NCBI GenBank assembly: GCA_963666345.1
Contig: OY762721.1
Location: forward strand, 1,344,001-1,408,000
Direction: 5' to 3'
DNA length: 64,000 nt
DNA from: Desulfatiglandales bacterium
GTDB taxonomy: Bacteria > Desulfobacterota > DSM-4660 > Desulfatiglandales > Desulfatiglandaceae
A program made the position numbers and the translations under genes. Below the pieces are notes generated by a model. That model was not told where the DNA came from. It searched no databases and saw nothing but the letters and a program-made list of their open reading frames with translations. Below are positions 83 to 15,980 of the stretch, piece after piece (positions within the stretch are counted from its first letter, which is position 1; each line of letters begins with the position of its first letter).

Positions 83-321
83 ACCACAAACCTATAATGC
101 CCTTTTCGGTATCAAAAATCGCAATATAGGCCTTATTTCAGGCCCTTTTCAGACTTGTTTCTAAGTTATTTCAGAATGTTATCGTGGCCCGACCCCCAAT
201 CAACCACAAACCTATAATGCCCTTTTTGGTATCAAAAATCGCAATATAGACCCGATTTCAGACCCTTTTCAGACTTCTTTCTAAGTTATTTCAGAATGTT
301 ATCGTGGCCCGACCCCCAATC
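83..321. repeat. Tandem duplication, period 120 bp (83-201 and 203-321), upstream of RAYT; each copy ends in TGGCCCGACCCC
   Basis: Direct comparison gives 6 mismatches in 119 bp. Confidence 0.95.
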
Positions 322-1291: not shown

Positions 1292-4200
1292 TCAATCTTT
1301 TTTGTGTAACTTATTTATGAAATCTGACAAGAGGTCTGCTCTCAGGAACTCTGCATTAATTCCTTCGGACGGGAAGCTGGTCCACCAATGACTGTTCCTG
1401 CTCAGGTATATTGTTATTATTTTGGGCGGGTTCTTTTCGTCTATAGGCCATCTTAGGGCTCGGGCGATTTCAGCCAGATGTTTCTTTAGGTAATCTTCCC
1501 GTCTGTTGATTTGCTCGAAATATCCTTGTGACTTGCCTGGTATGCCGAAAATTTTCTCTCTCAGCCTTCTTGCGTCTTTGAGAGAGTGCGCTTGGAGCAG
1601 GTCTTTGCATTCGATATTCAGGATGATGTTTTTATCTTGATGAAATGACAAAACGTCGTAATCGCCCAGCTCTTGAGGATGATGCCCTTTGGGTTCAAGC
1701 TTATCCAGCTTTAGGTTTTTTTGCGCAAGTGGCGTATGCCTTTTGACTATTTCAAACGTCTTGTCCGCTAAGGCATCCTCGATAAGCTTTTTTTCCGAGG
1801 CTATTACCTGTTCTATATTTGGTGACTGTAAATCTGTTGGCAACCTACCCTCCGGGATAGTTGCTGACCATAGGAGTGCTGTCCTTCTTGCGGAATATGC
1901 TCCCCAATGGAACTGATTTCCCACTTTGATTATCGGCCGCAGATTGTATCTTGCATACCTCTTCCTGTATTCCCATACCGGCAAGTCTGAACAGGGCTCT
2001 TCTTGTCCTAATACTCGGATAACATCTTCCTTCTTTAGCGTCAGGAAATCGATTATCCGGCCGGCCTCTTCTAAGCTACAATCTGGAATGTTTTTGCTAA
2101 ATATTTCGATTGTTTCCTCAGAAGCGGCTTTGTAGCTCGTGCTTTCTTCAACATCCTTGGCAAATGTTGGCCAGAAAGACAGAATTTGTAAGGCATTTAC
2201 CATATTCTTCAGACTAAATCCTAAGTCTGCGATGCTTGCCTTATCGATTTCGTTTAATAGTTCCTCAACAGGTCTTGGTGATTCCACCCGGTCCTCCGAT
2301 TTTCCGATAAGGCCTAATTCGAGTTGTGCCATCATTTCAGAATATTGTTTCTCCTTGGTTTCCATTTCGGGCTCGTACATTACCTCTAAAAGAAAGTCTC
2401 TGTCGAGCTTCATCCCAACCGGCAGGATTCCATAATGGAGGTTATCGCTTGCGCTGTACAACACATGAAGCCAGTCTATCAGCGCGATAAAATACTGGAA
2501 TTGGGTCCTGGTTATTTTTTCTTTTCCTTTCGGCTCTATCTGCACTAATTTTTCTATAATGTACCTATAGTTTTTGTGGGTCTTTATGAATTCCGTGTGC
2601 TTCTCCGCGTGTCTTACTTCCGGCTGGTAGTCTGTTTCGTGTTGTAACGAATGTTTGATTCTGTGTCGGTGGCGCTCGTTTTCCGCATTAAGAGCATCAA
2701 TTCTTGTGAGCAGAAATGGGATGGCGGTTGTAAAGTCATATTTTGACACCTCGGAGTTTATTTCGGCCACTATTGCATCTCTTAGCCTGTTAATGATTGT
2801 TTTGGCTTCCTCAAGATGGTATTCGCCTTCCTGGACGTCTAGCTGGCTTGCAATTTCCGCTATCCTTTTCTTGGCCCTTTTGAAATGCGCTTTTTCCGGC
2901 TCTAAGGGGCTTATGAATTCAGGAAAACTTGCCGGTTTATCTACGGCAAACATCTTGAAACGTGGCTTTCCCGGTTTGGTTTTTTCAAGCTTTTCTATTA
3001 TGCTTCCAATTTCTTTGTCTGGAACCAGTTCGTCTAATCGGGCTAAAACTTCCAGCAGGATATCGACTTCAAGAGAGCAATCCGTGGCGTCGTTAAAGGT
3101 CTTTCGTATTTCTTCGTCATTAAAAACGACTCTTACACCTATAGTGCCTTTTCTAATCCTGGATAGGTCAGAACACCAATATTTTTCGATTCCACAAAGA
3201 TGCCGTACATGTTTGAATTTTTCGTCCTTAACCACCATTGATAATGGGAAAAATATTATATGCAGTTTTTCTGGTCTCTTAAAAAACGCATGTTCAGTAA
3301 AGATTGACTCTCTTCTTGACATGGAATCTTCGAGGCATTCCATCAATAAATTAGACAAGCTACCTTGAGGGTAATCCATAGCATCGAATGGCGCAGTCAT
3401 AGAAACTTCAGTTGGACCGATTCTTGAATATAACGCCGAGCCGAAATATCCTCTTGCCACCAGTCTAATTCTTGTATCAGTCTCCTTTTTGACCTTCCAG
3501 CTTTGTGGATGTCCGAAAAATCCATGCTCCGGAAATTCTTCCCAAAATGAGGATAGGGTCTTGTAGCGAAGGCTCGTACCCCAATGAGGGTCAATACTTA
3601 TAAAGTCTGGCTCAAGGGCTCCTCCTATTAGTATTCCCTGAGAGTCCTTGTAGGAGGCGAACTTATCGAGCATAGTGAATCCGGTCTGTAGCTTAGGTTC
3701 TATTTCGTCCAAATATTCGAAAAAGTCAGCGAGAGTTTCTGGGTTTTCAAGCTCATCTATCATCCCGAGAAATGAATCGAGGAACATTACCCTGCCAGGC
3801 AAATCCACAGGTATTCCAAAAGATCGTATTTGGGTAGATACTTGTGGAATAATTATTAAGATTTCAGGTTGTAGAGTTCTCTTTTCGTCTTCTGAACGAA
3901 ATTGCACATTTTGCCTGTCTAAGTGGAGAGCCAGTGTTGCCGGTTGTTGGCTGGCTAGTTCTATAGCCTTGTTGAGTTCCGGCGCTATTTTTCTGAATTT
4001 TTTTTCCAGTGAATTTGAAGACACTTTCGGGGTTAAAAGGTAGATGAGTATGAGCTTGTTTCCAGCGATGAAGGCTGTAGTGAAAATTATATTATGCGGC
4101 TTTCCATCTTTTTCTACGGCGCTTGCCACGTAGAATATATTGTCTTTTGGGATACGGTATTTAACGTATTGATGCAATCTTGCGCCAATTTTAAAAAGAA

Positions 4201-5104
4201 GCCGTCGCTTGTCAGGTTCGATTTTATCGATATGATTTCTATATGTTTCTGACCATGAATCGAACAGTATCGCGGAGTACCGCCTTGGAAGTATAGGATA
4301 ATATCTTGCTTTGTTTTTGATAAAGAATGCGGGAATTAGAGTCCCATCGAATATGCTATTGCCAAAAGTTTCGTATTCCAGTGAATCTCGGGGGTATTCA
4401 CCGAGGTTTAGAGTATAAAGATTTTTGAACTGAGCAGGCTCCAACTCATCTGGTACGAATGCTGTATAAAATGTTTTAGCGTTTTCCCAGAATTCTTTCG
4501 GCGGTATCTCTATATGACCTGGTTCGATGTCTAAAGTCTTACTGTCCGGCTGTGCTGTTATCCCCTCAATTATGGTTTCTTGAAGGGTTAAGCAATATCT
4601 GAGCTCCAGGGCCGGGTCTCTATGGCAATGCCTATAATATTCTTCCTTGTATGGTCCGTAAACCATCTGGAATATTTCCAGGTATTCGTTCACGTTCGAC
4701 AACTCATTCCCGTAGAACATCTTATAATTTTTTTCATCATGATGGAATTTTATCTCTCCCCAGTCAGGTTCAGGGATGTAGTCCTCCAATGATGGGAATG
4801 CTGGAAGGAGATTATATATCTTTTCGAGGAAGGCTGAGAAGCCTTCATAAGTATTTATGATGTCTTCCGTGGAAAACTCTTCTGGCATAACAGTCGCGAA
4901 TATAGCAATAAGGAGCTGATGCTTTACTTGACTTGCGATATTCGGGAGCCACATATTTGAAACAAATAAGGATATGGCGACATCCTCAACGCTGTATTTG
5001 CGAAACTCGCTTCTGATACTCTCGACGCAATCACTGAAGGCCGCTTTTTCCTTTTCAGGATCTATGTCAAACATTCTTCTTATCGCTTCAATTCCATTTT
5101 CCAT
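1292..5104 (-). CDS. Large hypothetical protein with C-terminal PD-(D/E)xK nuclease-like motif, cassette gene
   Basis: 1270-aa ORF; GDYDVL...IECK near the C-terminus. Confidence 0.75.
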   Translation of the reverse strand: MENGIEAIRRMFDIDPEKEKAAFSDCVESIRSEFRKYSVEDVAISLFVSNMWLPNIASQVKHQLLIAIFATVMPEEFSTEDIINTYEGFSAFLEKIYNLLPAFPSLEDYIPEPDWGEIKFHHDEKNYKMFYGNELSNVNEYLEIFQMVYGPYKEEYYRHCHRDPALELRYCLTLQETIIEGITAQPDSKTLDIEPGHIEIPPKEFWENAKTFYTAFVPDELEPAQFKNLYTLNLGEYPRDSLEYETFGNSIFDGTLIPAFFIKNKARYYPILPRRYSAILFDSWSETYRNHIDKIEPDKRRLLFKIGARLHQYVKYRIPKDNIFYVASAVEKDGKPHNIIFTTAFIAGNKLILIYLLTPKVSSNSLEKKFRKIAPELNKAIELASQQPATLALHLDRQNVQFRSEDEKRTLQPEILIIIPQVSTQIRSFGIPVDLPGRVMFLDSFLGMIDELENPETLADFFEYLDEIEPKLQTGFTMLDKFASYKDSQGILIGGALEPDFISIDPHWGTSLRYKTLSSFWEEFPEHGFFGHPQSWKVKKETDTRIRLVARGYFGSALYSRIGPTEVSMTAPFDAMDYPQGSLSNLLMECLEDSMSRRESIFTEHAFFKRPEKLHIIFFPLSMVVKDEKFKHVRHLCGIEKYWCSDLSRIRKGTIGVRVVFNDEEIRKTFNDATDCSLEVDILLEVLARLDELVPDKEIGSIIEKLEKTKPGKPRFKMFAVDKPASFPEFISPLEPEKAHFKRAKKRIAEIASQLDVQEGEYHLEEAKTIINRLRDAIVAEINSEVSKYDFTTAIPFLLTRIDALNAENERHRHRIKHSLQHETDYQPEVRHAEKHTEFIKTHKNYRYIIEKLVQIEPKGKEKITRTQFQYFIALIDWLHVLYSASDNLHYGILPVGMKLDRDFLLEVMYEPEMETKEKQYSEMMAQLELGLIGKSEDRVESPRPVEELLNEIDKASIADLGFSLKNMVNALQILSFWPTFAKDVEESTSYKAASEETIEIFSKNIPDCSLEEAGRIIDFLTLKKEDVIRVLGQEEPCSDLPVWEYRKRYARYNLRPIIKVGNQFHWGAYSARRTALLWSATIPEGRLPTDLQSPNIEQVIASEKKLIEDALADKTFEIVKRHTPLAQKNLKLDKLEPKGHHPQELGDYDVLSFHQDKNIILNIECKDLLQAHSLKDARRLREKIFGIPGKSQGYFEQINRREDYLKKHLAEIARALRWPIDEKNPPKIITIYLSRNSHWWTSFPSEGINAEFLRADLLSDFINKLHKKD

Positions 5105-5133
5105 AAAGACTGCTACTCGTAATCAATTTGTGA

Positions 5134-5175
5134 ATTTTGGGGACAGTTTTTTAATTAATATCTTGTCCCCAGAAT
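5134..5175. repeat. REP-like palindrome
   Basis: ATTTTGGGGACA...TGTCCCCAGAAT inverted repeat. Confidence 0.6.
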
Positions 5176-5409
5176 ACCTTTATCTGCAGCGGCCGCAGTG
5201 CTTCGGAAGGGAAGCAGTGGAGATCACTGCTCGTTATTTCGTTCCGCGCCGAGGGTAAACCGTTGAAACAGGCCGAGGACTGTTGTCCCTTCTCTCGCGA
5301 AGGTGCTCCAGGGCTCGGAAAGGGTGATCTCCACCATGCCCGTTTGCCGCAGTGCCAATGACGGAGGCTCTAACGGTATTCTTTTAATGTCAGACCCTTC
5401 GCCCGGCGG

Positions 5410-5537
5410 AATCAACGAAAAGCTAACCAGCGGCGGGATGATTGCCAACCCTCTTGGGAAAGCTCAAACTCTGGTTAACTGCTAATTCATACAAAATGCC
5501 CCGGTTTTAGCCGTCTGAGTTAAGCGCCTGGTTAGGG
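5410..5537 (-). other. attC site (128 bp)
   Basis: AATCAAC-gaaaag-CTAACCAGCGGC...GCCG(t)CTG(a)GTT(a)AG-cgcctg-GTTAGGG. R'' GTTAGGGTG matches cassette start CACCCTAAC (6587-6595). Confidence 0.8.
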
Positions 5538-6569
5538 TGAATCGCTGGCGAGCCACTTGAATAACAATGCCGCCGCCAAGGATGCACTTGCGGCTACGAT
5601 CCAAGAAACGAGCGTTGGCCAGACTCGTTCAAAAGCGCTTGCCTTTGTCTTGGTCAGGTTGATTTTTGCATTTGGGATAAACTTTGAGTGAATCCAAAGG
5701 AACGCTGTCAAGAGTATAAAAATTGATGCTACAAATATTCCACGATTTGCCAAAGAATCAATATCGGGGATGGCCACCAGCATAGCCAAAAAGATGAATT
5801 GATTTAAATTAAGACCAAACTTTTTGTAGGTAGTTACAAGTGTGCTTTCGTTCTTTTTTATTGCAGACGCTAGCGCATTTGCTTTACCGATAACCCAAGA
5901 TTCTCGAACCCCTTGGACCCTAACTTCATTAACGCCAAATGATGATACTTCGACGGTTACCACTTTGTTTACACCATGCGCGTCAGGCTCTTGAACAAAT
6001 ATTTTAAGATATTTTAGCTCGGCAGCTTCTGGTGGATTCTTAAGAAAATCATCGGCGTATTTCGTAACATCTGGGCCACCATCATTATACGTAACGATGG
6101 CTCTTCCTGAATCGAAATCAACAAGCACGTGTCCAATTAATTTTCGAATATCCTCTTCATATAGTATTAAAGCTCCGAGTTGTATATTCTGGTTATAAAA
6201 TTGCTCTGGCACACCAGCAAGATTCTCTGCTGCTTCTTTTTGCCCTTCACCATGAGGGTATAGCGAAAACAACCCCCCTGTCCCTAGTGTTGACTCCCAT
6301 TTGCCTTTCAAATAGCCCTCGGGCGTGAGGGTTCCTTGAATCGTTAGCTCACCAAGCTCTACTCCCTCCCGAGATTGTTTTGGCTGACCTATAAGAGAAA
6401 TGGTCTCTCCATATTCACCCTCAACATGGTACACAGCAGCGCCATATTGGTCATCCAAGAAACGAAATGTCCCGGACAATTTTTCCTTGTCTTCATCAAG
6501 TGCCAAGAAAACGTTTCCGGTATTGGTCCCATAGACGCGGCCAGCCCACAGTTTTCCTAATGTGCTCAT
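5532..6569 (-). CDS. Hypothetical membrane protein (beta-rich N-terminus, C-terminal TM helices), cassette gene
   Basis: GAGGAG RBS before ATG 6569; hydrophobic C-terminal segments; stop codon lies in attC R''. Confidence 0.8.
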   Translation of the reverse strand: MSTLGKLWAGRVYGTNTGNVFLALDEDKEKLSGTFRFLDDQYGAAVYHVEGEYGETISLIGQPKQSREGVELGELTIQGTLTPEGYLKGKWESTLGTGGLFSLYPHGEGQKEAAENLAGVPEQFYNQNIQLGALILYEEDIRKLIGHVLVDFDSGRAIVTYNDGGPDVTKYADDFLKNPPEAAELKYLKIFVQEPDAHGVNKVVTVEVSSFGVNEVRVQGVRESWVIGKANALASAIKKNESTLVTTYKKFGLNLNQFIFLAMLVAIPDIDSLANRGIFVASIFILLTAFLWIHSKFIPNAKINLTKTKASAFERVWPTLVSWIVAASASLAAALLFKWLASDSP

Positions 6570-6588
6570 TCTTGGATATCTCCTCACA

Positions 6589-6645
6589 CCCTAACGAATT
6601 AATCAGCGGCCCGCTTTTTGGGTCCGCTGAATTTTCATGTTAAAT
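6589..6645 (-). other. attC site (57 bp)
   Basis: CCCTAAC-gaatta-ATCAGCGG-CCC...GGG(t)CCGCTG(a)AT-tttcat-GTTAAAT. Confidence 0.9.
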
Positions 6646-6647
6646 TC

Positions 6648-7346
6648 TTACTTTAATGACGGCATAGGCTTATGTTTAATCACTAAATATAGAACATCAG
6701 ATTGGAACCATGGAGACGTTGTTTTTTGATCTTTAGCGTCAAATGTTTCTTCCACGTGTGAGATTCCAATTAAAGATAAGGCGTCACTTAACCTTTTTGC
6801 ATCACCTAACCGTGTTCCTTCAAATATTCCAATTGAAACGCCATATTCGTTCTGCGTGTAATTCTTTATCCGCATCGTTTGCCAATGTGCCTCACGCAAA
6901 GCCACATCAAAATCATTCGCGAAATCTGAACTCTCCGCATCCATCAATGTTGAGACGATTGCGACAGTTCCCGGATCATCAGTGAGAAGCTTAATCAACT
7001 TCTCACTTTGAGCATTTGTCAAACGACGTGGCTTGACTTCGCTTTCAAGTTTATTTGCTTTAGCCTCCGTCCGTGCTAACTGATCTGATTGTGTCACAAT
7101 AAAATTTTGAAGCTCATCGACTTTCTTGTTGGAATTGTAGGTTTCCATCGAATTTATAACCATAAGCATCAATGCAAATACCGGGAGTCCCCAATTTACT
7201 AAAAGAAATTCCAAACCAGTGCGCCATTTTTCTTTTCCAATTTTAGCAGATTTGAATGCAACCCATCTCTTCCCATGATCGAAATATGCGGGAAGAAAAG
7301 AAATAAAGCAAAGAGCTATGTTTAAAAATAATGATAATTTCCACAT
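6648..7346 (-). CDS. Hypothetical membrane-anchored protein, cassette gene
   Basis: 232-aa ORF filling the cassette; two N-terminal hydrophobic segments followed by a coiled coil. Confidence 0.75.
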   Translation of the reverse strand: MWKLSLFLNIALCFISFLPAYFDHGKRWVAFKSAKIGKEKWRTGLEFLLVNWGLPVFALMLMVINSMETYNSNKKVDELQNFIVTQSDQLARTEAKANKLESEVKPRRLTNAQSEKLIKLLTDDPGTVAIVSTLMDAESSDFANDFDVALREAHWQTMRIKNYTQNEYGVSIGIFEGTRLGDAKRLSDALSLIGISHVEETFDAKDQKTTSPWFQSDVLYLVIKHKPMPSLK

Positions 7347-7365
7347 TTTTAATTTCTAATTTAAC

Positions 7366-7516
7366 GGCCCCGCGGATCAGCGGCGGGCGAACGCGCGAGC
7401 TTGCTCGCGTGGATGACCGACCGCTGCATCCGCTTGATGGCCGGCGCGCAGCGCCGGACAGCATGCGGATGATAATACGCGGGGCCGATGGCACGGCGCG
7501 TAGCGTCCGTGCCATC
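7366..7516 (-). mobile_element. 151-bp gene-less structured element, copy 1 (G variant)
   Basis: Four copies identical except for one loop base; inserted at the attC crossover. Confidence 0.85.
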
Positions 7517-7580
7517 ATCGAGATCACCTGCCGCTATGTAGCGCAGCGGAGTAGCGGTCAGGTGGAGCGCCTTGTTAGCC
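7517..7580 (-). other. attC body of the methyltransferase cassette (R' replaced by element end, ATC)
   Basis: atcgag-ATCACCTG-CCGCTA...TAGCGG(t)CAGGTG(g)AG-cgcctt-GTTAGCC. R'' matches cassette start GGGCTAAC (8229-8236). Confidence 0.85.
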
Positions 7581-8211
7581 CAGTGACGGTTCTATAAAGA
7601 CTTGCTATTACTGGAATAAATATCGGCGGTGTCAGCTTTAGAACTATTTGTCTAATCGATTTTTTATCGGCTTTCTGCCATTTTGCGTACTTTTCTGTAA
7701 ACTCTGTTAAAGAAGGCTTATCATTTTTAAAGCCAATTCCTACTATTGTATGAGGAAAACTCTCATTACCTTGAAATCCCACGAAAGACTTATCGAAGGG
7801 CTTCAAAATTGATTTGAATGCTTCAGGTGTGAATCGCCAATAATCATAGGGATGATCGTGAATAGGAAAATCCATAACAGAACTAATTACTGCAATTCCA
7901 TTAGGTTTAAGTATTCGATGTATCTCTTCTAATGCCTTACGGGGATATTCAACATGTTCCAGTGTATCAAAACACAAAACTGTTCCAACGGATTCAGAAG
8001 GGATGTCAATCGCATGTAAATCCAATATCTTATCAACGCCTAGGCCTTCTCGCATGTCACAACCAATATATTCTTTATTGCGGAATAACGGACGCAAATC
8101 CGCAAACCCTATCTGCTCAGGTACTTGAAATGAACCAAATTCATATATAGGTTCAAGGGTTGGTAACGTTATGCTTACTATGCTTGCAAAGTCTTTAACG
8201 TTCTGTCTCAT
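7558..8211 (-). CDS. Class I SAM-dependent methyltransferase, cassette gene
   Basis: EFGS motif-I variant, DTLEHVEYP, ILKPNG, HDHPYDYWRFT. Confidence 0.85.
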   Translation of the reverse strand: MRQNVKDFASIVSITLPTLEPIYEFGSFQVPEQIGFADLRPLFRNKEYIGCDMREGLGVDKILDLHAIDIPSESVGTVLCFDTLEHVEYPRKALEEIHRILKPNGIAVISSVMDFPIHDHPYDYWRFTPEAFKSILKPFDKSFVGFQGNESFPHTIVGIGFKNDKPSLTEFTEKYAKWQKADKKSIRQIVLKLTPPIFIPVIASLYRTVTGLTRRST

Positions 8212-8236
8212 ACTAATTCCTCTTTTTCGGGCTAAC

Positions 8237-8387
8237 GGCCCCGCGGATCAGCGGCGGGCGAACGCGCGAGCTTGCTCGCGTGGATGACCGACCGCTGCAT
8301 CCGCTTGATGGCCGGCGCGCAGCGCCGGACAGCATGCGGATGATAATACGCGGGGCCGATGGCACGGCGCATAGCGTCCGTGCCATC
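8237..8387 (-). mobile_element. 151-bp gene-less structured element, copy 2 (A variant)
   Basis: Same as copy 1 except A at 8371. Confidence 0.85.
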
Positions 8388-8442
8388 GCCGATCTTCAGC
8401 GGGCGCGGCTTTTTGCGATCCGCTGCAAGAGCATGGTTATGA
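8388..8442 (-). other. attC body of a cyclase-like cassette
   Basis: gccgat-CTTCAGCGG...CCGCTG(c)AAG-agcatg-GTTATGA. R'' GTTATGAAAT matches cassette start ATTTCATAAC (9428-9437). Confidence 0.85.
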
Positions 8443-8482
8443 AATAATCAGTGTTACTTGCTCAAAACGCTCTTTCCCATTC

Positions 8483-9400
8483 TTATTCACTTTGAAGGTC
8501 GATACCCCAATCCGGTAACCGTGACTCCACGTAGTTTCGAAGAAGAGTGTATCGAAATCCCAGCTTAGAGTTCCGAGCTTCTTTATGTTTAATAGATTCA
8601 TGAATGATAAAGTTGTAAGCAATGCGAACATGTTCGACGTGCTTCTGGAACGTGGATCTGATATCAGACCCCAGCCAATCAAGAAACGTGCACCCGTCAT
8701 CATCTACCGCAAGAAGTCCCAGTGCTCTCGTAGCGAGGTCAGCGTGTGCCTGCTCCTCTGCTGCGGTTATCCCTTCCAGGCCCGAGATGGACTGAAGATA
8801 GCGCACAAGCTCCTCACCGACAACTACTCTAGGGTACTGAGCCACCTTGCTTTCCAGCCTGTAAGCTCTAGCGAGGGCTGGACCATACACTTCGCCCTCT
8901 TCGATGTCCATTGCTAGACCGAGTTCGATTCCGCCCCGAATTGTCCAAGAATGCACCAGGCATGAGAGAAACGTCATGGCTGTTGCAGCCAAAACCCCAT
9001 AAATAGCGTGACATTGGAATTTACCTACGTCGTTACGCAGCGGAATATGGACTATCAGTGAATCAGAAAAATGCCGATAGAAGACGGGGGTACTCCTAAA
9101 CTGTTTCAGAAGTTCCTTTTCCAAAGGCGAAAACGCGCTCTCGTCTGAACCCCCTTCAAGGAATGGCTTGATACTGGCACTAAAGAAGCTTTGCAGGCCA
9201 TAAAGTGGTCTGTAAAGTTCGGCCACTTTCTGCTTAAAGGCGGCCACCTCTTCTTGGTTCTCGACATTAGGCAATACCGTCATTTTGCTGAGCACATCCT
9301 GCTGTCCAAGTAGGTCCAGAAATGCCACTACATACCATGCCATATGTTTCGGTTTCTGGTTCTTCGGGTCTTCTGTTCTATTCGCATCCTGATTCATCAT
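8483..9400 (-). CDS. Class III nucleotidyl-cyclase-like hypothetical protein, cassette gene
   Basis: AFLDLLG, FSDS, RGGIELG, YGPALARAYRLES..AQYPR. Confidence 0.7.
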   Translation of the reverse strand: MMNQDANRTEDPKNQKPKHMAWYVVAFLDLLGQQDVLSKMTVLPNVENQEEVAAFKQKVAELYRPLYGLQSFFSASIKPFLEGGSDESAFSPLEKELLKQFRSTPVFYRHFSDSLIVHIPLRNDVGKFQCHAIYGVLAATAMTFLSCLVHSWTIRGGIELGLAMDIEEGEVYGPALARAYRLESKVAQYPRVVVGEELVRYLQSISGLEGITAAEEQAHADLATRALGLLAVDDDGCTFLDWLGSDIRSTFQKHVEHVRIAYNFIIHESIKHKEARNSKLGFRYTLLRNYVESRLPDWGIDLQSE

Positions 9401-9437
9401 ACATTCCTGACTTCTGGCCTACTTTCTATTTCATAAC

Positions 9438-9588
9438 GGCCCCGCGGATCAGCGGCGGGCGAACGCGCGAGCTTGCTCGCGTGGATGACCGACCGCTGCA
9501 TCCGCTTGATGGCCGGCGCGCAGCGCCGGACAGCATGCGGATGATAATACGCGGGGCCGATGGCACGGCGCGTAGCGTCCGTGCCATC
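9438..9588 (-). mobile_element. 151-bp gene-less structured element, copy 3 (G variant)
   Basis: Identical to copy 1. Confidence 0.85.
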
Positions 9589-9668
9589 GTTAAAATAACT
9601 GGCAAATTAAAGCGGTGCGGCGATAGGAGCGCCGCTTTAATTTGTCCAAGTTGATTTTCTTGTTATGT
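9589..9668 (-). other. attC body of the STAND cassette
   Basis: gttaaa-ATAACTGG-CAAATTAAAGCGG...CCGCTTTAATTTG(t)CCAAGTT(g)AT-tttctt-GTTATGT. R'' matches ACACATAAC (13566-13574). Confidence 0.85.
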
Positions 9669-9740
9669 GTTGATTGCATCATCCCTGCCAGACTTTATCA
9701 TCAAAAAGCACAATAGCTGCTTACGGCCAAAATCGGACAT

Positions 9741-12700
9741 TCAGAATCTATCCTCCATAAAATCGGATTTTTTCTCAGCTTCCATCATTTTCCGATTACC
9801 TTGCACATGCCTTTCAATATAAAGCTTATGTTGAAGAAGGTCTGCGGTGTTGCACAAGGGCAAAAGCGATTCCCAATATTCAACCCGCGCTTGATACATT
9901 GGCACCGCACTTCCTGAGCCACCCCAAGTATCAGGCTCCAATGCCAACCTCTCAAAATCTTCATAACTTTTATTGTTTTCAAGAAACAACTCTATGAAGC
10001 GCTTCCGCCTTTCCGGAGCAAAATGCGATATTGGCTTAAATATTAAAGCCATTAAGTAGGAGTCTTGTGCTTGCTCCTGAATTATTGCCACCAGAAATTC
10101 ATCCTGCTTTGCTACAGCTTCCGGCGGGCATTTTTTGTTGCCATGAACACAGAAGAGCCGTTCCATATAGCTTCCTAATATATATCCCCGCCCTTTTTCA
10201 TGTTGCAGTAAGCGCTCTATTGCACGCGACATAATGGTATCACAGTCATTGTGATGCCACAGAAACGCATAATCACGTGTGTCTGCATAACTGCGCGCCC
10301 ATTCATCACCATCATATACCCGATCTGTATACTCCAGTATAAAATCAGGATTTACGGACAGTATGCGGCCAAGCGTCGCGCCGTTATAATCAGCATTTCT
10401 ATCCACCTTTATGTGAACCATGTATGCTCTTTCCAAAGAGTCTTGATGACCGTCGAAAAGATCAAAAATTTGTTTATTAGCCTCCGAAAGCGGATTGAAG
10501 AGAGAGTCCAATCCGTGGCCAAAAAAATCATCTGTCTCTGCTTTTTCTACAATTATGTTTGTAACATTCACGACAACACCACTGTCTTGCGCTGTATAAT
10601 TTAGCAGATAATCGTAATCGTATGGCAGTTCGCTGCGTTCAGCATTCCGGTAGAGTTCATACAAATTTTCTATGGTTTCAGAGTTAATATCCTCGGGTGA
10701 TAGGCATAGATAGTAACCAAAAAGCCATTGCCGTTTGGCCGGATATTCAGGCTCTTCAACAATCTTAAGCGTTTGTTTAGCGCCGCACGTTTTCAGCAAC
10801 TTATCGACGATTATAGCAGGTTGCTGTATTGCCAGAGGGTTTCCCAATTTCAAATATTCCTGGATTACCTGTACATAAAGAGGGCCGTCTCTTTCTGCAA
10901 GAGCCAGTAGGGCCTGCAGGATTCCTGTCTTAACTTCGTGCGTTTCGTGACTGCCGCTTATATAGGACATTATTTCTATAAACTGCTGAATAAGCCGTAG
11001 ATAGTCATCAAGACCAAATTTGCTTGTATAGTCCTTTATTTTTTGTTTTTTGAATTTTTCAAATTCACGAAAGCCCATATCTCCTGCATCGGAGTAATCA
11101 AAAGACAGCAATTTGTATATTTCATAAATTCCATTACGGAAGTTTTCGGAAAGCTTGTCCATATCAGGAATATCGCGGAGGTCGAGCATGGCAAGATAAT
11201 CCTGTACAATAAGGCAATGTGAAAAATTATCCGGGTCGAGCGTGTCTCTAATAAACGGAATTACAACCTCTGCATCTTTGACTGCGATCTCTTTTTGTGA
11301 CAGGTAATAGCCCGAATTGCTGTAGCTTTTCAAAACGCCCAAAGCTTCTTTTTGAAAAGAGAAGTTTTGATACAGATGAAAAATACCGTTCCAAATAGCC
11401 CTCCGTAGCTCGAAAATCGGTTCAATTGCTATGAGGTTAAACTGATGTATGGTTATAGAGTTTTTTGACGCCTCGTGGCTTTCAAACCGTGTGGGCATAT
11501 ATTTTTTTGCAACAGCAAGAAACAGCTTCGAAAACAATTCATTCCTGCCCTGATCAGCTTTTTGCCAGAGAGTTTCAATCACAATCCTTTGAATGATATA
11601 TTCCCGAAGATGAGAATGGTGCGTAAATCCAAATCTTTTTGTTAGGAGATTAAGAAATTGGGGAACAGCTTGCGGTATTTTCTCCACATAATTAAAGGCC
11701 AATTCAAGCGCAGAACGGAAAGTGCCCTTTTCATCTGCCTGTTTAAAGAGACCCAAAAGGTCTAGAAGAGGGTGCAAATCTGTATCAGGGTTTTCCGCCG
11801 CCCAGTCTATGGAAGCGAGTTCAACTGGTTTTGCCTCTACTGCTTCAATGCAGTCACGGATATAAACAAGAGCATCCGATTGAAGCAAAAACCAGAATAG
11901 CCGGATGAGCGAATGCAGATTGTTTGTATCCCCGCTATTCATTAAATCGCGCCTTTTCTTTTGTATATGAGGACGCATCTGCGCTGTGAGCCTTGCGAAG
12001 TCAAACGCGTTCAAACAGGGATAAATGGCATCTCTAAAACGGTTAGTTTGCCCAGGAAAGAAATTGTCTATGAGGGTAGTAAAGTCGAGAATCTCATCTT
12101 TGAAAAAGCAAAGATAAAATAAATAAGTGACAAAAACTTGATCACTGATTTTTACAACTTCACGTTCATAAATATTAACAACCTCACAGTCGTGAAGATG
12201 TTGGACCGCTTTCCAGAAATCTTCAGGAGCAATTCCAAAAATATTTTGTATGAGTTGCATCAATTCTGTGTTGGAGCGATCTATAGTCCTGAAAAAAGAA
12301 ATGATTCCTGCAACCTTCAAAACATTCTCATCCTGCAGGTTTCTAAGGTCATTAGATATGGAGGCAAAATATTCATCATATAGGACAGAGACATCCCTGA
12401 TGCTGTCAAAACTACCGTGTTTGACCGCTACTTTTGCTGCCATGATTGCAAGCCGTGGGTTGCCCCCGGAAATCTCAGCAATTCTGTCCAGAAATAATGG
12501 GTTTGTTATGTTGTATTGCTCCTTAACCAAATCCTTTATTTCTTGCGCCTGCATCGGTTTCAACTCTATTTCAGGGGTTGCTCCCAAGGGTTTTGCGGCC
12601 TGGTTTATTTTGTCACGTGCGTAATCGCGCACGGTTGCGATCACTTTTATCTGCTGATCTTGTCTTTGGTTTTGGATAAGATCGACAACATAATCAAACC

Positions 12701-13511
12701 GTGTGATACGGTTTGCATCATCCACTAAAATCAGAAATTGGCCGGGCTGTGAAAAATGAGTGCGTATATCTTCGAACAGGTCGGGTCCCCTGTTATATAT
12801 GCACCGCGTTTCAAAATCCGGATGTGCTTCCTCAAAATCTTGAAGAGCCTGCAGGCCAAGGCGGGATTTACCAACACCAGCTTGGCCTGATAAAACCACA
12901 AGGTTATTGTTTACCAGTCCTTCCAAAACTTGTTGTATTTCCTGCTCCCGGAAATGAAAATCTGTATCCAATGGTGTGGTAAGCTGATTTCTTCCTACAT
13001 TCGCTACAAAATCGCCCGGCTCCAAAATTTGCCCTGTATCAATGCTAATGCCCAGAAAAGCCTGCGCTAGGCCCGGATACTTTTGATAGAGGTCAAAGGA
13101 GATACTGCCTATTCCAAAAACCTGAATATTTACCCCTTTTTGCTTGCCTTCATCGTAAAGCTCTTTCTCTTCTTCAGGTGAAAGAAGAGATGTATGGCAG
13201 AAAACAATTTCCTCAATCTCAGTTAATAGAATGCCAGTTTTAGTCTCATCAAGGCATTTACTCAGATCGCCTTTTAATTTAGACGCAATATTCGTTTGGT
13301 CTGTGGTAAATTCTGCAAAAATAAGTTTGCCATTTTTCTGTCGTATATAAGTATCTGGTGTCCCTTTTCGTACTTTATTTGCACCGATCACAGAACCGAT
13401 AGGGTTGATATTGTTATAGCCTTTTTTGTGTATATAACTGTCTGCCAGTTTTTGGAACTCTCCGCATCCAATTTCTTTTAGGGCCTTTTCTATCTGGTTA
13501 ATCTTAGACAT
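9741..13511 (-). CDS. Mrr/REase-like N-terminus plus STAND P-loop NTPase (Avs-like putative antiphage protein), cassette gene
   Basis: N-terminal F..L...GTPD...E motif, Walker A GQAGVGKS, Walker B LILVDD, GGNP, long helical C-terminus; 1256 aa. Confidence 0.75.
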   Translation of the reverse strand: MSKINQIEKALKEIGCGEFQKLADSYIHKKGYNNINPIGSVIGANKVRKGTPDTYIRQKNGKLIFAEFTTDQTNIASKLKGDLSKCLDETKTGILLTEIEEIVFCHTSLLSPEEEKELYDEGKQKGVNIQVFGIGSISFDLYQKYPGLAQAFLGISIDTGQILEPGDFVANVGRNQLTTPLDTDFHFREQEIQQVLEGLVNNNLVVLSGQAGVGKSRLGLQALQDFEEAHPDFETRCIYNRGPDLFEDIRTHFSQPGQFLILVDDANRITRFDYVVDLIQNQRQDQQIKVIATVRDYARDKINQAAKPLGATPEIELKPMQAQEIKDLVKEQYNITNPLFLDRIAEISGGNPRLAIMAAKVAVKHGSFDSIRDVSVLYDEYFASISNDLRNLQDENVLKVAGIISFFRTIDRSNTELMQLIQNIFGIAPEDFWKAVQHLHDCEVVNIYEREVVKISDQVFVTYLFYLCFFKDEILDFTTLIDNFFPGQTNRFRDAIYPCLNAFDFARLTAQMRPHIQKKRRDLMNSGDTNNLHSLIRLFWFLLQSDALVYIRDCIEAVEAKPVELASIDWAAENPDTDLHPLLDLLGLFKQADEKGTFRSALELAFNYVEKIPQAVPQFLNLLTKRFGFTHHSHLREYIIQRIVIETLWQKADQGRNELFSKLFLAVAKKYMPTRFESHEASKNSITIHQFNLIAIEPIFELRRAIWNGIFHLYQNFSFQKEALGVLKSYSNSGYYLSQKEIAVKDAEVVIPFIRDTLDPDNFSHCLIVQDYLAMLDLRDIPDMDKLSENFRNGIYEIYKLLSFDYSDAGDMGFREFEKFKKQKIKDYTSKFGLDDYLRLIQQFIEIMSYISGSHETHEVKTGILQALLALAERDGPLYVQVIQEYLKLGNPLAIQQPAIIVDKLLKTCGAKQTLKIVEEPEYPAKRQWLFGYYLCLSPEDINSETIENLYELYRNAERSELPYDYDYLLNYTAQDSGVVVNVTNIIVEKAETDDFFGHGLDSLFNPLSEANKQIFDLFDGHQDSLERAYMVHIKVDRNADYNGATLGRILSVNPDFILEYTDRVYDGDEWARSYADTRDYAFLWHHNDCDTIMSRAIERLLQHEKGRGYILGSYMERLFCVHGNKKCPPEAVAKQDEFLVAIIQEQAQDSYLMALIFKPISHFAPERRKRFIELFLENNKSYEDFERLALEPDTWGGSGSAVPMYQARVEYWESLLPLCNTADLLQHKLYIERHVQGNRKMMEAEKKSDFMEDRF

Positions 13512-13567
13512 CAGAAGTTTATCCTTTCAAACGTCCGCTATGGGTCGAAAAAGGACATTCCCAAGAC

Positions 13568-13625
13568 ACATAACGATTGAACTGTGCGGCGCGTTTTTTG
13601 CGTCCGCACCAGTGACAGGTTAGCC
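13568..13625 (-). other. attC site (58 bp)
   Basis: ACATAAC-gattga-ACTGTGCGG-CGC...GCG(t)CCGCAC(c)AGT-gacag-GTTAGCC. Confidence 0.9.
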
Positions 13626-13631
13626 AAATTT

Positions 13632-14522
13632 TTAATCAACTCCCCATATTCTTTTACGTGAGTTGATATAATTTAATAACCGGAAATATCTTGAGGATAG
13701 TTTATCATTTTCAGCCTTTACGTATTTTTGATGCTGAGAGACCACAAAATCATATGCAAGATTTACTACTTCTGTATCAATGGAATTATCTGCCGTTTCC
13801 TTGGATTTTTCCCCCATAAAATCGAGCATGAAACGTCCATCTGTGTCTCTAATAATCATTTCTCTACAAAATTTGGCCATATCTTTTGCCACCAAACCAA
13901 GTCGAGTTTTACACTGTTGATTTTCAACCCATAACAAATAATTTATGAGTTCTTTTCCGACAACAAAACGAGGATACTCAGCTAAATTGCTTTCGATAAA
14001 ATATGCACGTTCAAGCGCTGGCCCATATATTTCCTGTCCTTCGATTTTTGTTCCAATCCCTACATCTAATCCAGCCCGCAAAGCAATAGTGGCAGCTAGG
14101 CTGATAAAACCAATACCACAAGTTGCTACAAGTGCAGAATAAACGCCATTAATGGCAGTACAATTCTCATCGTCACTCATTAGTGGTACAGCGACTATTA
14201 TTGAGTCAGAAAAACTATAAAAATAAACCTCAGATTTTTGTGAAGCTATAAACTCTTCACGATGTTCAGGTGGCACAAGATCGGTATTTGGAATATGCGA
14301 ACTGGAGGCTTTAAAGAAATCACTAAAAGCATTTCTAAGTCTATCAACTTTACCTACTGTTTGGCGTATTTTATCTAAAAAGACCTCTTTTTCCTCCTCA
14401 TTTGTAGGCAAATCTCTAATCTCACGCAATATGCTTCTTTGCCCAAGAATATCGAGAAAAACAATAAGATAGTGTTGAAATACCAAGTCACTTTTATTTT
14501 TTTGATTAATTTTAATATTCAT
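13632..14522 (-). CDS. Class III nucleotidyl-cyclase-like hypothetical protein, first gene cassette
   Basis: VFLDILG, FSDS, RAGLDVG, YGPALERAYFIES..AEYPR; homologous to 8483-9400. Confidence 0.7.
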   Translation of the reverse strand: MNIKINQKNKSDLVFQHYLIVFLDILGQRSILREIRDLPTNEEEKEVFLDKIRQTVGKVDRLRNAFSDFFKASSSHIPNTDLVPPEHREEFIASQKSEVYFYSFSDSIIVAVPLMSDDENCTAINGVYSALVATCGIGFISLAATIALRAGLDVGIGTKIEGQEIYGPALERAYFIESNLAEYPRFVVGKELINYLLWVENQQCKTRLGLVAKDMAKFCREMIIRDTDGRFMLDFMGEKSKETADNSIDTEVVNLAYDFVVSQHQKYVKAENDKLSSRYFRLLNYINSRKRIWGVD

Positions 14523-14538
14523 ATTTTTATTTGCTAAC

Positions 14539-14689
14539 GGCCCCGCGGATCAGCGGCGGGCGAACGCGCGAGCTTGCTCGCGTGGATGACCGACCGCTGC
14601 ATCCGCTTGATGGCCGGCGCGCAGCGCCGGACAGCATGCGGATGATAATACGCGGGGCCGATGGCACGGCGCATAGCGTCCGTGCCATC
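14539..14689 (-). mobile_element. 151-bp gene-less structured element, copy 4 (A variant), at the attI-proximal position
   Basis: Identical to copy 2; followed by non-attC sequence towards intI. Confidence 0.85.
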
Positions 14690-14780
14690 TAGTGAGTAGT
14701 GAGAATTATTTCCCGTTTAACAGTAAACGCGACTTTTTTCTCGTTTATTCAATATCCCGGAAGTAATTCTCGTTTATTGA
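14689..14780 (-). other. Putative attI region
   Basis: Lies between the first array unit and intI; no attC hairpin; three direct repeats TT(C)YCGTTTA at 14710, 14738 and 14767. Confidence 0.5.
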
Positions 14781-14810
14781 GTCCTCTTGCACCTCTGTGG
14801 AACAAGCCTT

Positions 14811-14927
14811 TGCACAAAAACCTGTGCATGATTGCCCTAAAAATTGTGCAAATTCGCCGATCATATTTGCTGTCACCTTCTTAAAGTGCTGAATTTTATG
14901 GACATTCTTATCTGGCATGTTTCATGC
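14811..14927 (+). promoter_or_regulatory. Putative sigma54 promoter with two upstream activator-like palindromes, facing intI
   Basis: TGGCATGTTTCATGC (14913-14927, GG-N10-GC); TGCACA-N6-TGTGCA (14811) and TGCCCT-N6-TGTGCA (14833). Confidence 0.5.
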
Positions 14928-15011
14928 GTTCTTTTTCTGCATGCGCATGCTGCTAAGAGGTTAATATTACATAATATCACGCCATAAAGCTCGTATATTG
15001 GATTTATTGAA

Positions 15012-15980
15012 ATGAATACCACCTCTAAACCCAAAAAGCTGCTCGACCAGGTCAGGGACGTGCTTCGAGTAAAGCACTACGCATACAGGACCGAGAAAAC
15101 CTACATATTCTGGATTCGCAGATTCATCCTTTTTCATGAAAAGAAACACCCTTCGGAAATGGGCTCAAAGCAAATCCAGGATTTTTTGACACACTTGGCA
15201 GTGGAACGTAACGTCTCCGCCTCCACCCAGAACCAAGCTTTGAACGCTTTAATTTTTCTGTATAAAAAGGTCCTCCGCATTGATTTAACGGATCCCATTG
15301 AAGCCGTCCGCGCCAGACGGCCGACCCGACTTCCGGTCGTGCTTTCCAAACCGGAGGCATTTAAGATCATCGACCTCATTTCCGGCGAGTCTCAACTCAT
15401 CGTCAAGCTCCTCTACGGAAGCGGGCTTCGCCTGATGGAATGCATGCGGCTCCGTGTAAAGGATATCGACTTTTCAATGAACCAGATCCTTGTTCGTCAC
15501 GGTAAGGGCGGAAAGGACCGTGTGACAGTGCTCCCGGCGAATGTCACAGACTCTCTTCAAATGCATTTGAAAAAGGTCAGGGCCATTCATGAAGATGATT
15601 GCAGACATGGATTTGGCCATGTCAATCTTCCCGGGGCTCTCGCCAGAAAATATCCCAATGCCTCTAGTCAATGGGCGTGGCAATTTGTTTTCCCGTCCAG
15701 ATCTCTTTGCAAAGATCCACGCTCCGGAGAAATCCGGCGGCATCACCTGCACGAAAGCTGTGTAAGAAAGGCCCTTAAAAAGGCTGTAACTCTTGCCGAC
15801 ATCCATAAGCAAGTCGGATGCCACTGCTTCCGGCACAGCTTTGCAACTCATCTCCTTGCAGACGGTTACGACATCCGCACTGTGCAGGAGCTGCTCGGGC
15901 ACAAAGACGTTTCCACAACAATGATTTACACGCACGTCCTGAACAAAGGCGGCCGTGCCGTTCGGAGCCCGATCGACTGA
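15012..15980 (+). CDS. intI: Integron integrase
   Basis: LLDQVR..LR..HY N-terminus; catalytic R (GLR), K (GKGGKDR), HCFRH, LGH and Y (TMIYTH); integron-specific insert ALARKYPNA...WQFVFPS. Confidence 0.97.

Follow-up and report, generated by a model that had tools for sequence, protein, structure and literature searches.

What kind of unit is a short, G+C-rich stretch without a gene that recurs beside an integron integrase gene and can pair almost entirely with itself? The question is raised by element E, which occupies positions 7366-7516 of the window (the whole 64,000-nt stretch of DNA analysed). E is 151 nt long, has 71% G+C, and forms an island amid AT-rich genes. It contains no ORF and is a gene-less unit. 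The initial annotation described it as a circularised, viroid-like DNA whose joined ends match its own interior. The match is exact: the joined ends, CCGTGCCATC followed by GGCCCCGCG, are the reverse complement of window 7478-7496, and the same relation between the last ten plus first nine bases and the internal 19-mer (8349, 9550, and 14651) is found in the three other copies. The reading preferred here, with a probability of about 0.7, is that E is an integron cassette in miniature, gene-less and self-complementary, which the integron integrase (IntI) moves.

Copies and edges of E in the integron array

The array and its E copies comprise the following features.

7363..7365, + strand: AAC core (bottom-strand R' of the array) 5' of E; present at all 6 copies, AA| in relatives
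7366..7516, + strand: E copy 1, a 151-nt gene-less cassette, defined by repeat family, sharp edges, fold, and covariation
7517..7580, + strand: attC body of the upstream (methyltransferase) cassette, with the end GTTAGCC (7574-7580), as read from the sequence
8237..8387, + strand: E copy 2, with 1 difference (G/A at position 135)
Directly 3' of 8237..8387, + strand: attC after E copy 2, GCC-GATCTT-CAGCGG..CCGCTG-C-AAGAGC-ATG-GTTATGA
9438..9588, + strand: E copy 3, followed by a long-stem attC with the end GTTATGT
14539..14689, + strand: E copy 4, the first unit of the array, abutting the attI/promoter region
14690..15011, no strand assigned: presumed attI and promoter region between copy 4 and intI, placed by position only
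15012..15980, + strand: integron integrase gene intI (NCBIfam TIGR02249, 471.6 bits against a cut-off of 265; Pfam SAM_4 and Phage_integrase)

The intI gene at 15012-15980 is the sole full copy in the genome. To the left of intI, every array gene lies on the minus strand, and short hairpin sites separate the genes. The sites free of E (1195-1245, 6590-6645, and 13570-13625) have, on the + strand, the layout AAC, 3-nt spacer, 5-6 bp, 6 bp, loop, 6 bp, one extra base, 5-6 bp, 3-nt spacer, and GTTAGSM. The extra base of these local attCs lies on the arm opposite AAC, and extrahelical bases opposite AAC mark the recombinogenic bottom strand of attC (PMC5027507). This indicates that the + strand of the window is the bottom strand, and E always lies on it. 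All four E copies of the window are in bottom-strand orientation and no more than 7.6 kb from intI.

The genome contains six copies of E, four of them inside the window. Five are 99-100% identical and one, L006, is 86% identical; L006 lies outside the window together with L001, which is identical. The four copies in the window have a single variable position and razor-sharp ends. Flanks differ among all six copies, and for the five 99-100% copies they differ on both sides. Every copy starts directly after the AAC of an attC or attI core (AAC in 6/6 copies, TAAC in 4 of them). The left edge is AA|C in 6/6 genomic copies, and the right edge is AT|C in this genome. The IntI cleavage points of copy 1 probably lie at 7364|7365 on the left and at 7515|7516 on the right. 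In the cleavage-point register the unit would run from 7365 to 7515 and carry its own core, AT|C.

Removal of E in silico leaves an ordinary attC at copies 1-3 and at L006, for example TAAC | GCC GATCTT CAGCGG ... CCGCTG C AAGAGC ATG GTTATGA. An attC with the architecture of the 7517..7580 body is also found after copies 2 and 3. Among relatives of E in other genomes, the right flank together with the left AAC gives a normal attC (AAC, 3-nt spacer, stem, extrahelical base, and GTTRRRY) in at least 20 of about 35 contexts, as judged by eye.

E is the first unit beside intI in this genome and, independently, on contig C89 of genome G079, where it lies at 13986-14155, 127 nt from a broken intI. 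The orientations of E and intI agree in 6 of the 7 cases among relatives in which both are on the same contig, the exception being G124 (intI at 1.485 Mb). Matches to intI (E<=1e-40) are present in 13 of 19 E-bearing genomes and in 48 of 86 other genomes of the family, no clear enrichment among MAGs that are fragmentary; one genome, G103, was scored without intI since it is not among the matches listed.

Several other features of the array were recorded. The attC body after copy 2 (window 8393-8441, TCTTCAGCGG..CCGCTGCAAGAG) has a very high word depth in four sediment/culture runs, with many flanks. The same body also lies 3' of E relatives of all three core types (L038, L043), and it seems to be the dominant attC type of the community. 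Two very large cassette-like ORFs of 1256 and 1270 aa are located in the array on the minus strand (9741-13511 and 1292-5104, respectively). The former has weak STAND NTPase matches below the Pfam cut-offs, which suggests a defence-type cassette. Between two minus-strand array ORFs lies a 430-nt non-coding region (5105-5531) with 53-55% G+C, which is single-copy in the genome, has no Rfam match, and contains AAC..GTT-like motifs with no clear attC. Outside the window, L001 165-260 (genome 3097163-3097258) has a 32-residue match to the C-terminus of an integron integrase. The sixth E copy is 1.3 kb away from this fragment and an IS200-like element is nearby, and the region may be a decayed second integron.

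The closed Y fold of the + strand

Folding of both strands as circular and linear molecules, which the initial annotation had proposed, gives a closed Y on the + strand. The DNA MFE is -72.5 kcal/mol for the linear and -73.1 kcal/mol for the circular form, with the same pairs in both. The z-score of this fold is -9.88 (-9.9 when rounded), and 0/200 dinucleotide shuffles were as stable. The minus strand of E, also folded as DNA, has a weaker fold of -62.1 kcal/mol. The parts of the closed Y (fold A) are listed below.

7366..7374, + strand: 5' strand of helix A (GGCCCCGCG); partner 7478-7486; unpaired spacer in the canonical attC fold
7384..7420, + strand: arm 1, variable terminal structure; tip CGCGAGC-TT-GCTCGCG (7394-7409); all pairs of helices 2-6 covary
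7441..7457, + strand: arm 2 tip; contains GCGCAGC (7446-7452), a GCGNAGC mini-hairpin motif
7478..7496, + strand: internal 19-mer CGCGGGGCC|GATGGCACGG; 3' strand of helix A, box 2, and 5' arm of hairpin B
7497..7506, + strand: loop CGCGTAGCGT; contains the mini-hairpin motif GCGTAGC (7498-7504), CGCGWAGCGT in most relatives
7507..7516, + strand: 3' arm of hairpin B, corresponding to the R' of E itself (..GCCAT|C); contig matches end at 7516

The closing helix consists of 9 bp (7366-7374 with 7478-7486). It leads to arm 1, CAGCGG..CGCGAGC-TT-GCTCGCG..CCGCTG, and arm 2, CATCCGC..CCGGCGC-GCA-GCGCCGG..GCGGATG. The terminal hairpin comprises 10 bp (7487-7496 with 7507-7516) and a 10-nt loop, and abuts the closing helix. 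The arms of the three-way junction and the 10-nt-loop cap reported in the initial annotation are thus present in the computed MFE. Its statement that the 19-bp helix exists only in the circle does not hold, as the 9-bp and 10-bp halves pair identically in the integrated linear strand. The circle-specific part of the helix is only the covalent continuity of one strand. Since the pairs are identical in the linear and circular forms, the 19-bp helix is also found in the integrated strand, as two stacked halves.

A covariance model was built from six sequences and searched in the genomes of the family and the order. Relatives of E occur in 19/105 family genomes and in 13/45 genera. Across the order, they occur in 25/151 sampled genomes from three families, often as several copies per genome. 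A plain MAFFT alignment of 6 sequences has compensatory double changes in 22/55 predicted pairs. The model-fitted alignment contains 42 matches, 38 of them distinct; its fit to the structure inflates pairing and its cells are not independent events, and in it 92.5% of cells are paired, compared to 64.9% after shuffling and 34-42% after the partners are displaced by 1-3 columns. Both sides have changed in 53/55 pairs of this alignment. For helix 1, compensatory change is present at 9/9 pairs and 97.1% of cells are paired. The homologue comparison suggested with the initial annotation therefore strongly supports the Y fold, with 53 of the 55 pairs being compensatory.

The strand under selection is indicated by two further properties. 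On the + strand there are 94 G·T cells and 37 A·C cells, and a G·T bias of this kind is reported for folded attC bottom strands (PMC5027507). Over the 38 distinct relatives, there are 45 GCGNAGC motifs on the + strand compared to 8 on the minus strand, and 31/38 have at least one on the + strand. Two of the three hairpin tips of E are GCGCAGC and GCGTAGC, members of the motif GCGNAGC, whose mini-hairpins in DNA are described as extraordinarily stable (PMC13037366). The sequence evidence thus supports selection on the + strand (the bottom strand of attC) in its folded, single-stranded state. The earlier proposal had placed this selection on a single-stranded circle. Covariation, G·T bias, and GCGNAGC agree with the single-strand fold, and the circle is not needed, as all Y pairs form linearly. 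In addition, the diverged copy L006 keeps its terminal hairpin pair by using a flank-side base, which fits the integrated form and not the circle.

In several lineages (G013, L058, L062, L063, L050, L051, and L041) the arm 2 tip is GGCGCTTCGCGCC, the reverse complement of GGCGCGAAGCGCC. The tip is thus flipped in these lineages, and the GNA loop lies on the other strand there.

The strand bias also bears on the possibility that the fold acts mainly as RNA, either as a structured spacer on the sense cassette transcript or as an antisense small RNA, with mobility being only its vehicle. Such a spacer could be an mRNA stabiliser, a processing site, or a roadblock. The sense-strand RNA of E folds strongly (-99.2 kcal/mol, z -7.55), E lies about 20 nt upstream of the next ORF, and gene-less cassettes elsewhere act on transcription (PMC11014356, PMC6557892). 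The G·T bias and the orientation of GCGNAGC, however, favour the + strand, which is antisense to the cassettes, and GCGNAGC is a DNA motif. Rfam 15 gave no match over E at the gathering threshold, nor at E<=1 in a search of 5000-15100, and a scan of 7250-7650 found no promoter-like or terminator-like site inside E. A main role as RNA is improbable on these grounds.

The attC-like half of E and the position of the crossover

The initial annotation reported a second pairing, exclusive of the Y, that mimics the local attC L box. This pairing is real. It joins GCGGATCAGCGG (7372-7383) to CCGCTG-c-ATCCGC (7421-7433) with an extrahelical C7427, and on its 3' side lies the GATGGC that the annotation had counted as the second (7436-7441; box 1 below). 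The following features belong to this fold (fold B).

7372..7383, + strand: L' (GCGGAT-CAGCGG); its CAGCGG part forms the base of arm 1 when fold A is adopted
7421..7433, + strand: L'' (CCGCTG-c-ATCCGC); C7427 is extrahelical and located on the arm facing the cleaved triplet, the arrangement of bottom-strand attC sites
7436..7441, + strand: box 1, the first GATGGC, an R''-like partner of the 3'-terminal GCCATC

Constrained folding confirms two mutually exclusive folds of E. Fold B forced in the circle has -48.1 kcal/mol, compared to -73.1 for the closed Y. The bottom strand thus favours the closed Y over the recombinogenic attC hairpin, the canonical fold being 25 kcal/mol less stable. The closed Y has a 19-bp helix without an unpaired spacer or an extrahelical base, and is therefore not a canonical IntI substrate.

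In bottom-strand order, the attC-style parts of E are R' GCCAT|C (at the 3' end), the spacer GGCCCC, L', arm 1, L'', TT, and box 1. The L box has the attC arrangement, with 7372-7383 paired to 7421-7433 and C7427 unpaired opposite the cleaved triplet. The resemblance to local attCs extends to sequence, as the CAGCGG/CCGCTG core is common to E and the attCs at 6604-6630 and 8397-8425. The R'/R'' triplet AAC/GTT is absent from E of this genome and is replaced by GCCATC/GATGGC. The spacer of fold B is asymmetric, GGCCCC against TT (6 nt vs 2 nt), while the local attCs have 3 nt vs 3 nt. In the MFE of the attC part alone, the spacer becomes a 4-nt bulge. A spacer of 10 nt instead of 6 between AAC and L', as annotated earlier, could not be reproduced, the distance from AAC to CAGCGG being 12 nt in E and 8-9 nt in local attCs.

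In the rest of E, about 70 nt (7442-7506), GCGGAT and GATGGC each occur a second time (the latter as box 2), together with the complement of the spacer. This portion is in effect antisense to the attC and gives rise to the closed Y. R', box 1, and box 2 co-vary across types (GATGGC, GATAGG, TTGTCG, TTCCCG, and TTACCC). A per-sequence script finds box 2 in 25/25 and box 1 (at most 1 mismatch) in about 15-18 of the 25 full-length relatives whose boundaries could be called; this count leaves out 8 sequences whose boundaries could not be called, as well as 5 minis or truncated rows. The three types align one column out of register, and the column-based covariation of R' and box 1 was not used. The stem specific to the canonical fold is paired in 75.6% of cells and has little covariation, which makes this fold plausible, with support weaker than that of the Y.

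The relatives differ in their cores as follows.

Core type 1 (includes this genome): left ..AA|C, right ..CAT|C, internal box G-ATGG..
Core types 2 and 3: left ..AA|T, right ..AA|C, internal box A-TT..

The boxes of type 2 and 3 relatives are GTT.. (box 1) and ATT.. (box 2). The constant T after AA in types 2 and 3 cannot be obtained from canonical AAC targets, and so this T belongs to the element. Together with the complementarity to the internal A-TT box, this places the crossover after the second base of the triplet, which is the IntI cut. The AAC triplet has been called "not important per se" (PMC5027507), and an ATC core is accordingly unusual yet conceivable. Four mini relatives of 53-58 nt consist of two adjacent hairpins without the attC half, apparently the outcome of a deletion from one GCGGAT repeat to the other.

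Some flanks deviate from this pattern. L019 (G013:C30) and L039 (G124:C3:1493809) have the left flank ..CAT|C instead of ..AA|C, which hints at recombination between two ATC-type elements or at a secondary site. At no fewer than seven loci from several genera, an AT-rich motif (..TA[TG][AT]TAGTTTC[TC].. or ..TATAGTTTCT..) lies directly 3' of the E relative. These loci include L008/L019, L018 (first copy), L020, L037 (mini copy), L060, and L062. The motif may represent a conserved attI type or another gene-less cassette; no intI was found near L020.

The junctions also have to be weighed against a transposon. IS200/IS605-type elements insert 3' of a short target on single-stranded DNA, and this target would be AAC here. 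E could accordingly be a non-autonomous, for example palindrome-associated, transposon moved by a Y1 transposase of this type, with its preference for attC being incidental. Its left cleavage motif in the flank, right motif inside the element, lack of target duplication, structured ends, and strand-specific insertion all follow this logic. With 17 Y1_Tnp matches in the genome, including one at a distance of 2.4 kb from L001, such a miniature element deserves serious consideration. Nevertheless, the multi-copy 620-nt IS200-like element, the sole Y1 family compared, has unrelated ends (CCACCAG..CTGGTGG on the left and CCACCCC..GGGGTGG on the right), and no longer element with the ends of E is present in the genome. 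Furthermore, the crossover is the IntI cut, the flanks rebuild attCs, and E contains an attC homologous to the local ones (CAGCGG/CCGCTG with an extrahelical base), with AA|C cores in types 2 and 3. A Y1 transposase is thus a very improbable mover of E.

A Y1-transposase match (genome 1343746-1344045, extending past the window start) lies beside tandem 119-nt repeats at window 83-321, which are 95% identical.

Movement, proposed mechanism and meaning

Sequencing data of other samples were available as contigs from four runs, a form in which rare variants drop out. On metagenome contigs, similarity to the window stops exactly at 7516 and 8236, and the methyltransferase cassette is bordered by unlike sequence beyond these two points. 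In runs X4 and X5, contigs carry E with 0-1 differences in other flanks. Neither a circle junction nor an excision product of E was seen among these contigs. A candidate filled/empty pair, in which an X3 contig has an E variant and then a TAATCAGCGGCCCG.. attC resembling the E-free site 6590-6645, was rejected because it shares only the common attC type.

These contigs bear on whether E moves as a unit of its own. It could instead be an insertion or expansion within a long composite attC, between R' and the spacer, that travels only with the upstream cassette, and its Y would then keep the AAC of the host attC beside its spacer so that the host site still works. The fold does join the ends of E, and the left AAC and right attC body could consequently still form one hairpin; the pairing kept in L006 with a flank-side base also agrees. 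Against this, identical E copies precede four different attC/attI bodies in one array, one copy abuts attI, where no upstream cassette exists, and the contigs show both the methyltransferase cassette with different sequence beyond its borders and E with other neighbours. Both the composite site as a whole and the idea that its Y preserves a working host attC are highly unlikely in view of these arrangements.

The independent miniature cassette remains the preferred reading. IntI is its probable mover, judging from the sequence of the junctions. The viroid comparison of the initial annotation is not borne out, as there is no sign of autonomous replication and the behaviour of E is that of an integron cassette with IntI cleavage points at its edges. 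Its description of E as essentially all recombination site is upheld. The left end of E would be the canonical AA|C of the neighbouring attC or attI, and the right end E's own AT|C paired with GAT. The first ~76 nt and the 3'-terminal GCCATC, which are joined only in the circle, would form a canonical-style attC, in which GCCAT|C and the first GATGGC make up the R box; the spacer, the L box with its extrahelical C, and a terminal hairpin complete this site. The "anti-attC" of ~70 nt would use its second GATGGC, spacer complement, and second GCGGAT to pair with the R', spacer, and L'' of this attC. The bottom strand could thus adopt either the canonical attC fold or the closed Y, which is far more stable and brings the two ends together on the 19-bp helix. 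On this model the closed fold would serve E, either as a compact nuclease-resistant strand or by gating or templating recombination.

A more specific and tentative proposal, which is possible but rather unlikely, is that E is to integrons what a MITE is to transposons, a parasitic "mini-cassette", with the anti-attC half as a functional device. In the excised single-stranded circle, the anti-attC would zip up a nuclease-resistant Y (a dumbbell in the 53-58-nt minis), and the Y shape would present the cleavage point within a perfect helix. In the integrated strand, it would stack the two helices of E against the R and L stems of the neighbouring attC. The result would be a pre-formed four-way, Holliday-junction-like substrate that IntI might resolve at AA|C and AT|C. 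The movement of E, and perhaps of the adjacent cassette, would then be gated by switching of the strand between closed Y and canonical attC hairpin.

Compared to known systems, E is closest in setting to the gene-less cassettes of Vibrionaceae superintegrons and oral Treponema integrons, which are likewise ORF-less, bounded by cores, located in arrays, and sometimes repeated. Those characterised are promoters (PMC11014356, PMC6557892). E differs from promoter cassettes in its 151 nt, its 71% G+C, the lack of a promoter-like site, and its almost full base pairing. It differs from known gene-less cassettes in general in that its non-attC half complements its own attC, with covariation across three families of the order. 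With the canonical attC (59-base element) E has in common the bottom-strand hairpin, R box, spacer, L box with extrahelical base, and variable terminal structure. In contrast, the core of E is ATC/GAT instead of AAC/GTT, its spacer is asymmetric (6 nt vs 2 nt), and R', the spacer, and part of L''/R'' are tied up in a competing fold of much greater stability.

Group IIC-attC introns target attC sites, as do the IS1111-attC insertion sequences, and the elements of these two groups are 1.3-2 kb long and encode their own transposase or reverse transcriptase. E, in contrast, encodes nothing, and its junctions coincide with the IntI cut. CTX-type phages have an attP in which a region of ~150 nt of the single-stranded circle folds into a forked hairpin, the recombination site for XerCD, a tyrosine recombinase of the host. 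The recombinase and the target (dif) differ from those of E, and the phage has genes and replicates, whereas E is only a site. The insertion of IS1111-attC elements into the attC sites of cassette arrays is orientation-specific (PMC3001079), a property that E shares.

In the open full texts, with subscription journals lying outside them, no description was found of a cassette made up solely of an attC and the antisense of that attC, combined with an ATC/GAT core and a closed fold that is conserved. The GCGNAGC mini-hairpin is known from oligonucleotide chemistry and some origins, and no description of it as a conserved part of integron cassettes was found in the open literature.

Integron recombination depends on the folding of single-stranded attC DNA, and no description of natural attC sites with a built-in competing fold was found in the open literature. 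E permits testing whether the accessibility of attC is switchable. It is also a natural minimal substrate for what IntI needs, with its non-AAC triplet, the lack of a spacer or extrahelical base in its stable fold, and dumbbells of 55 nt. Since units like E would escape attC finders based on AAC/GTT, arrays in these sediment bacteria may be mis-segmented. If E is indeed a selfish mini-cassette, integrons would, like transposons, have miniature parasites of their own.
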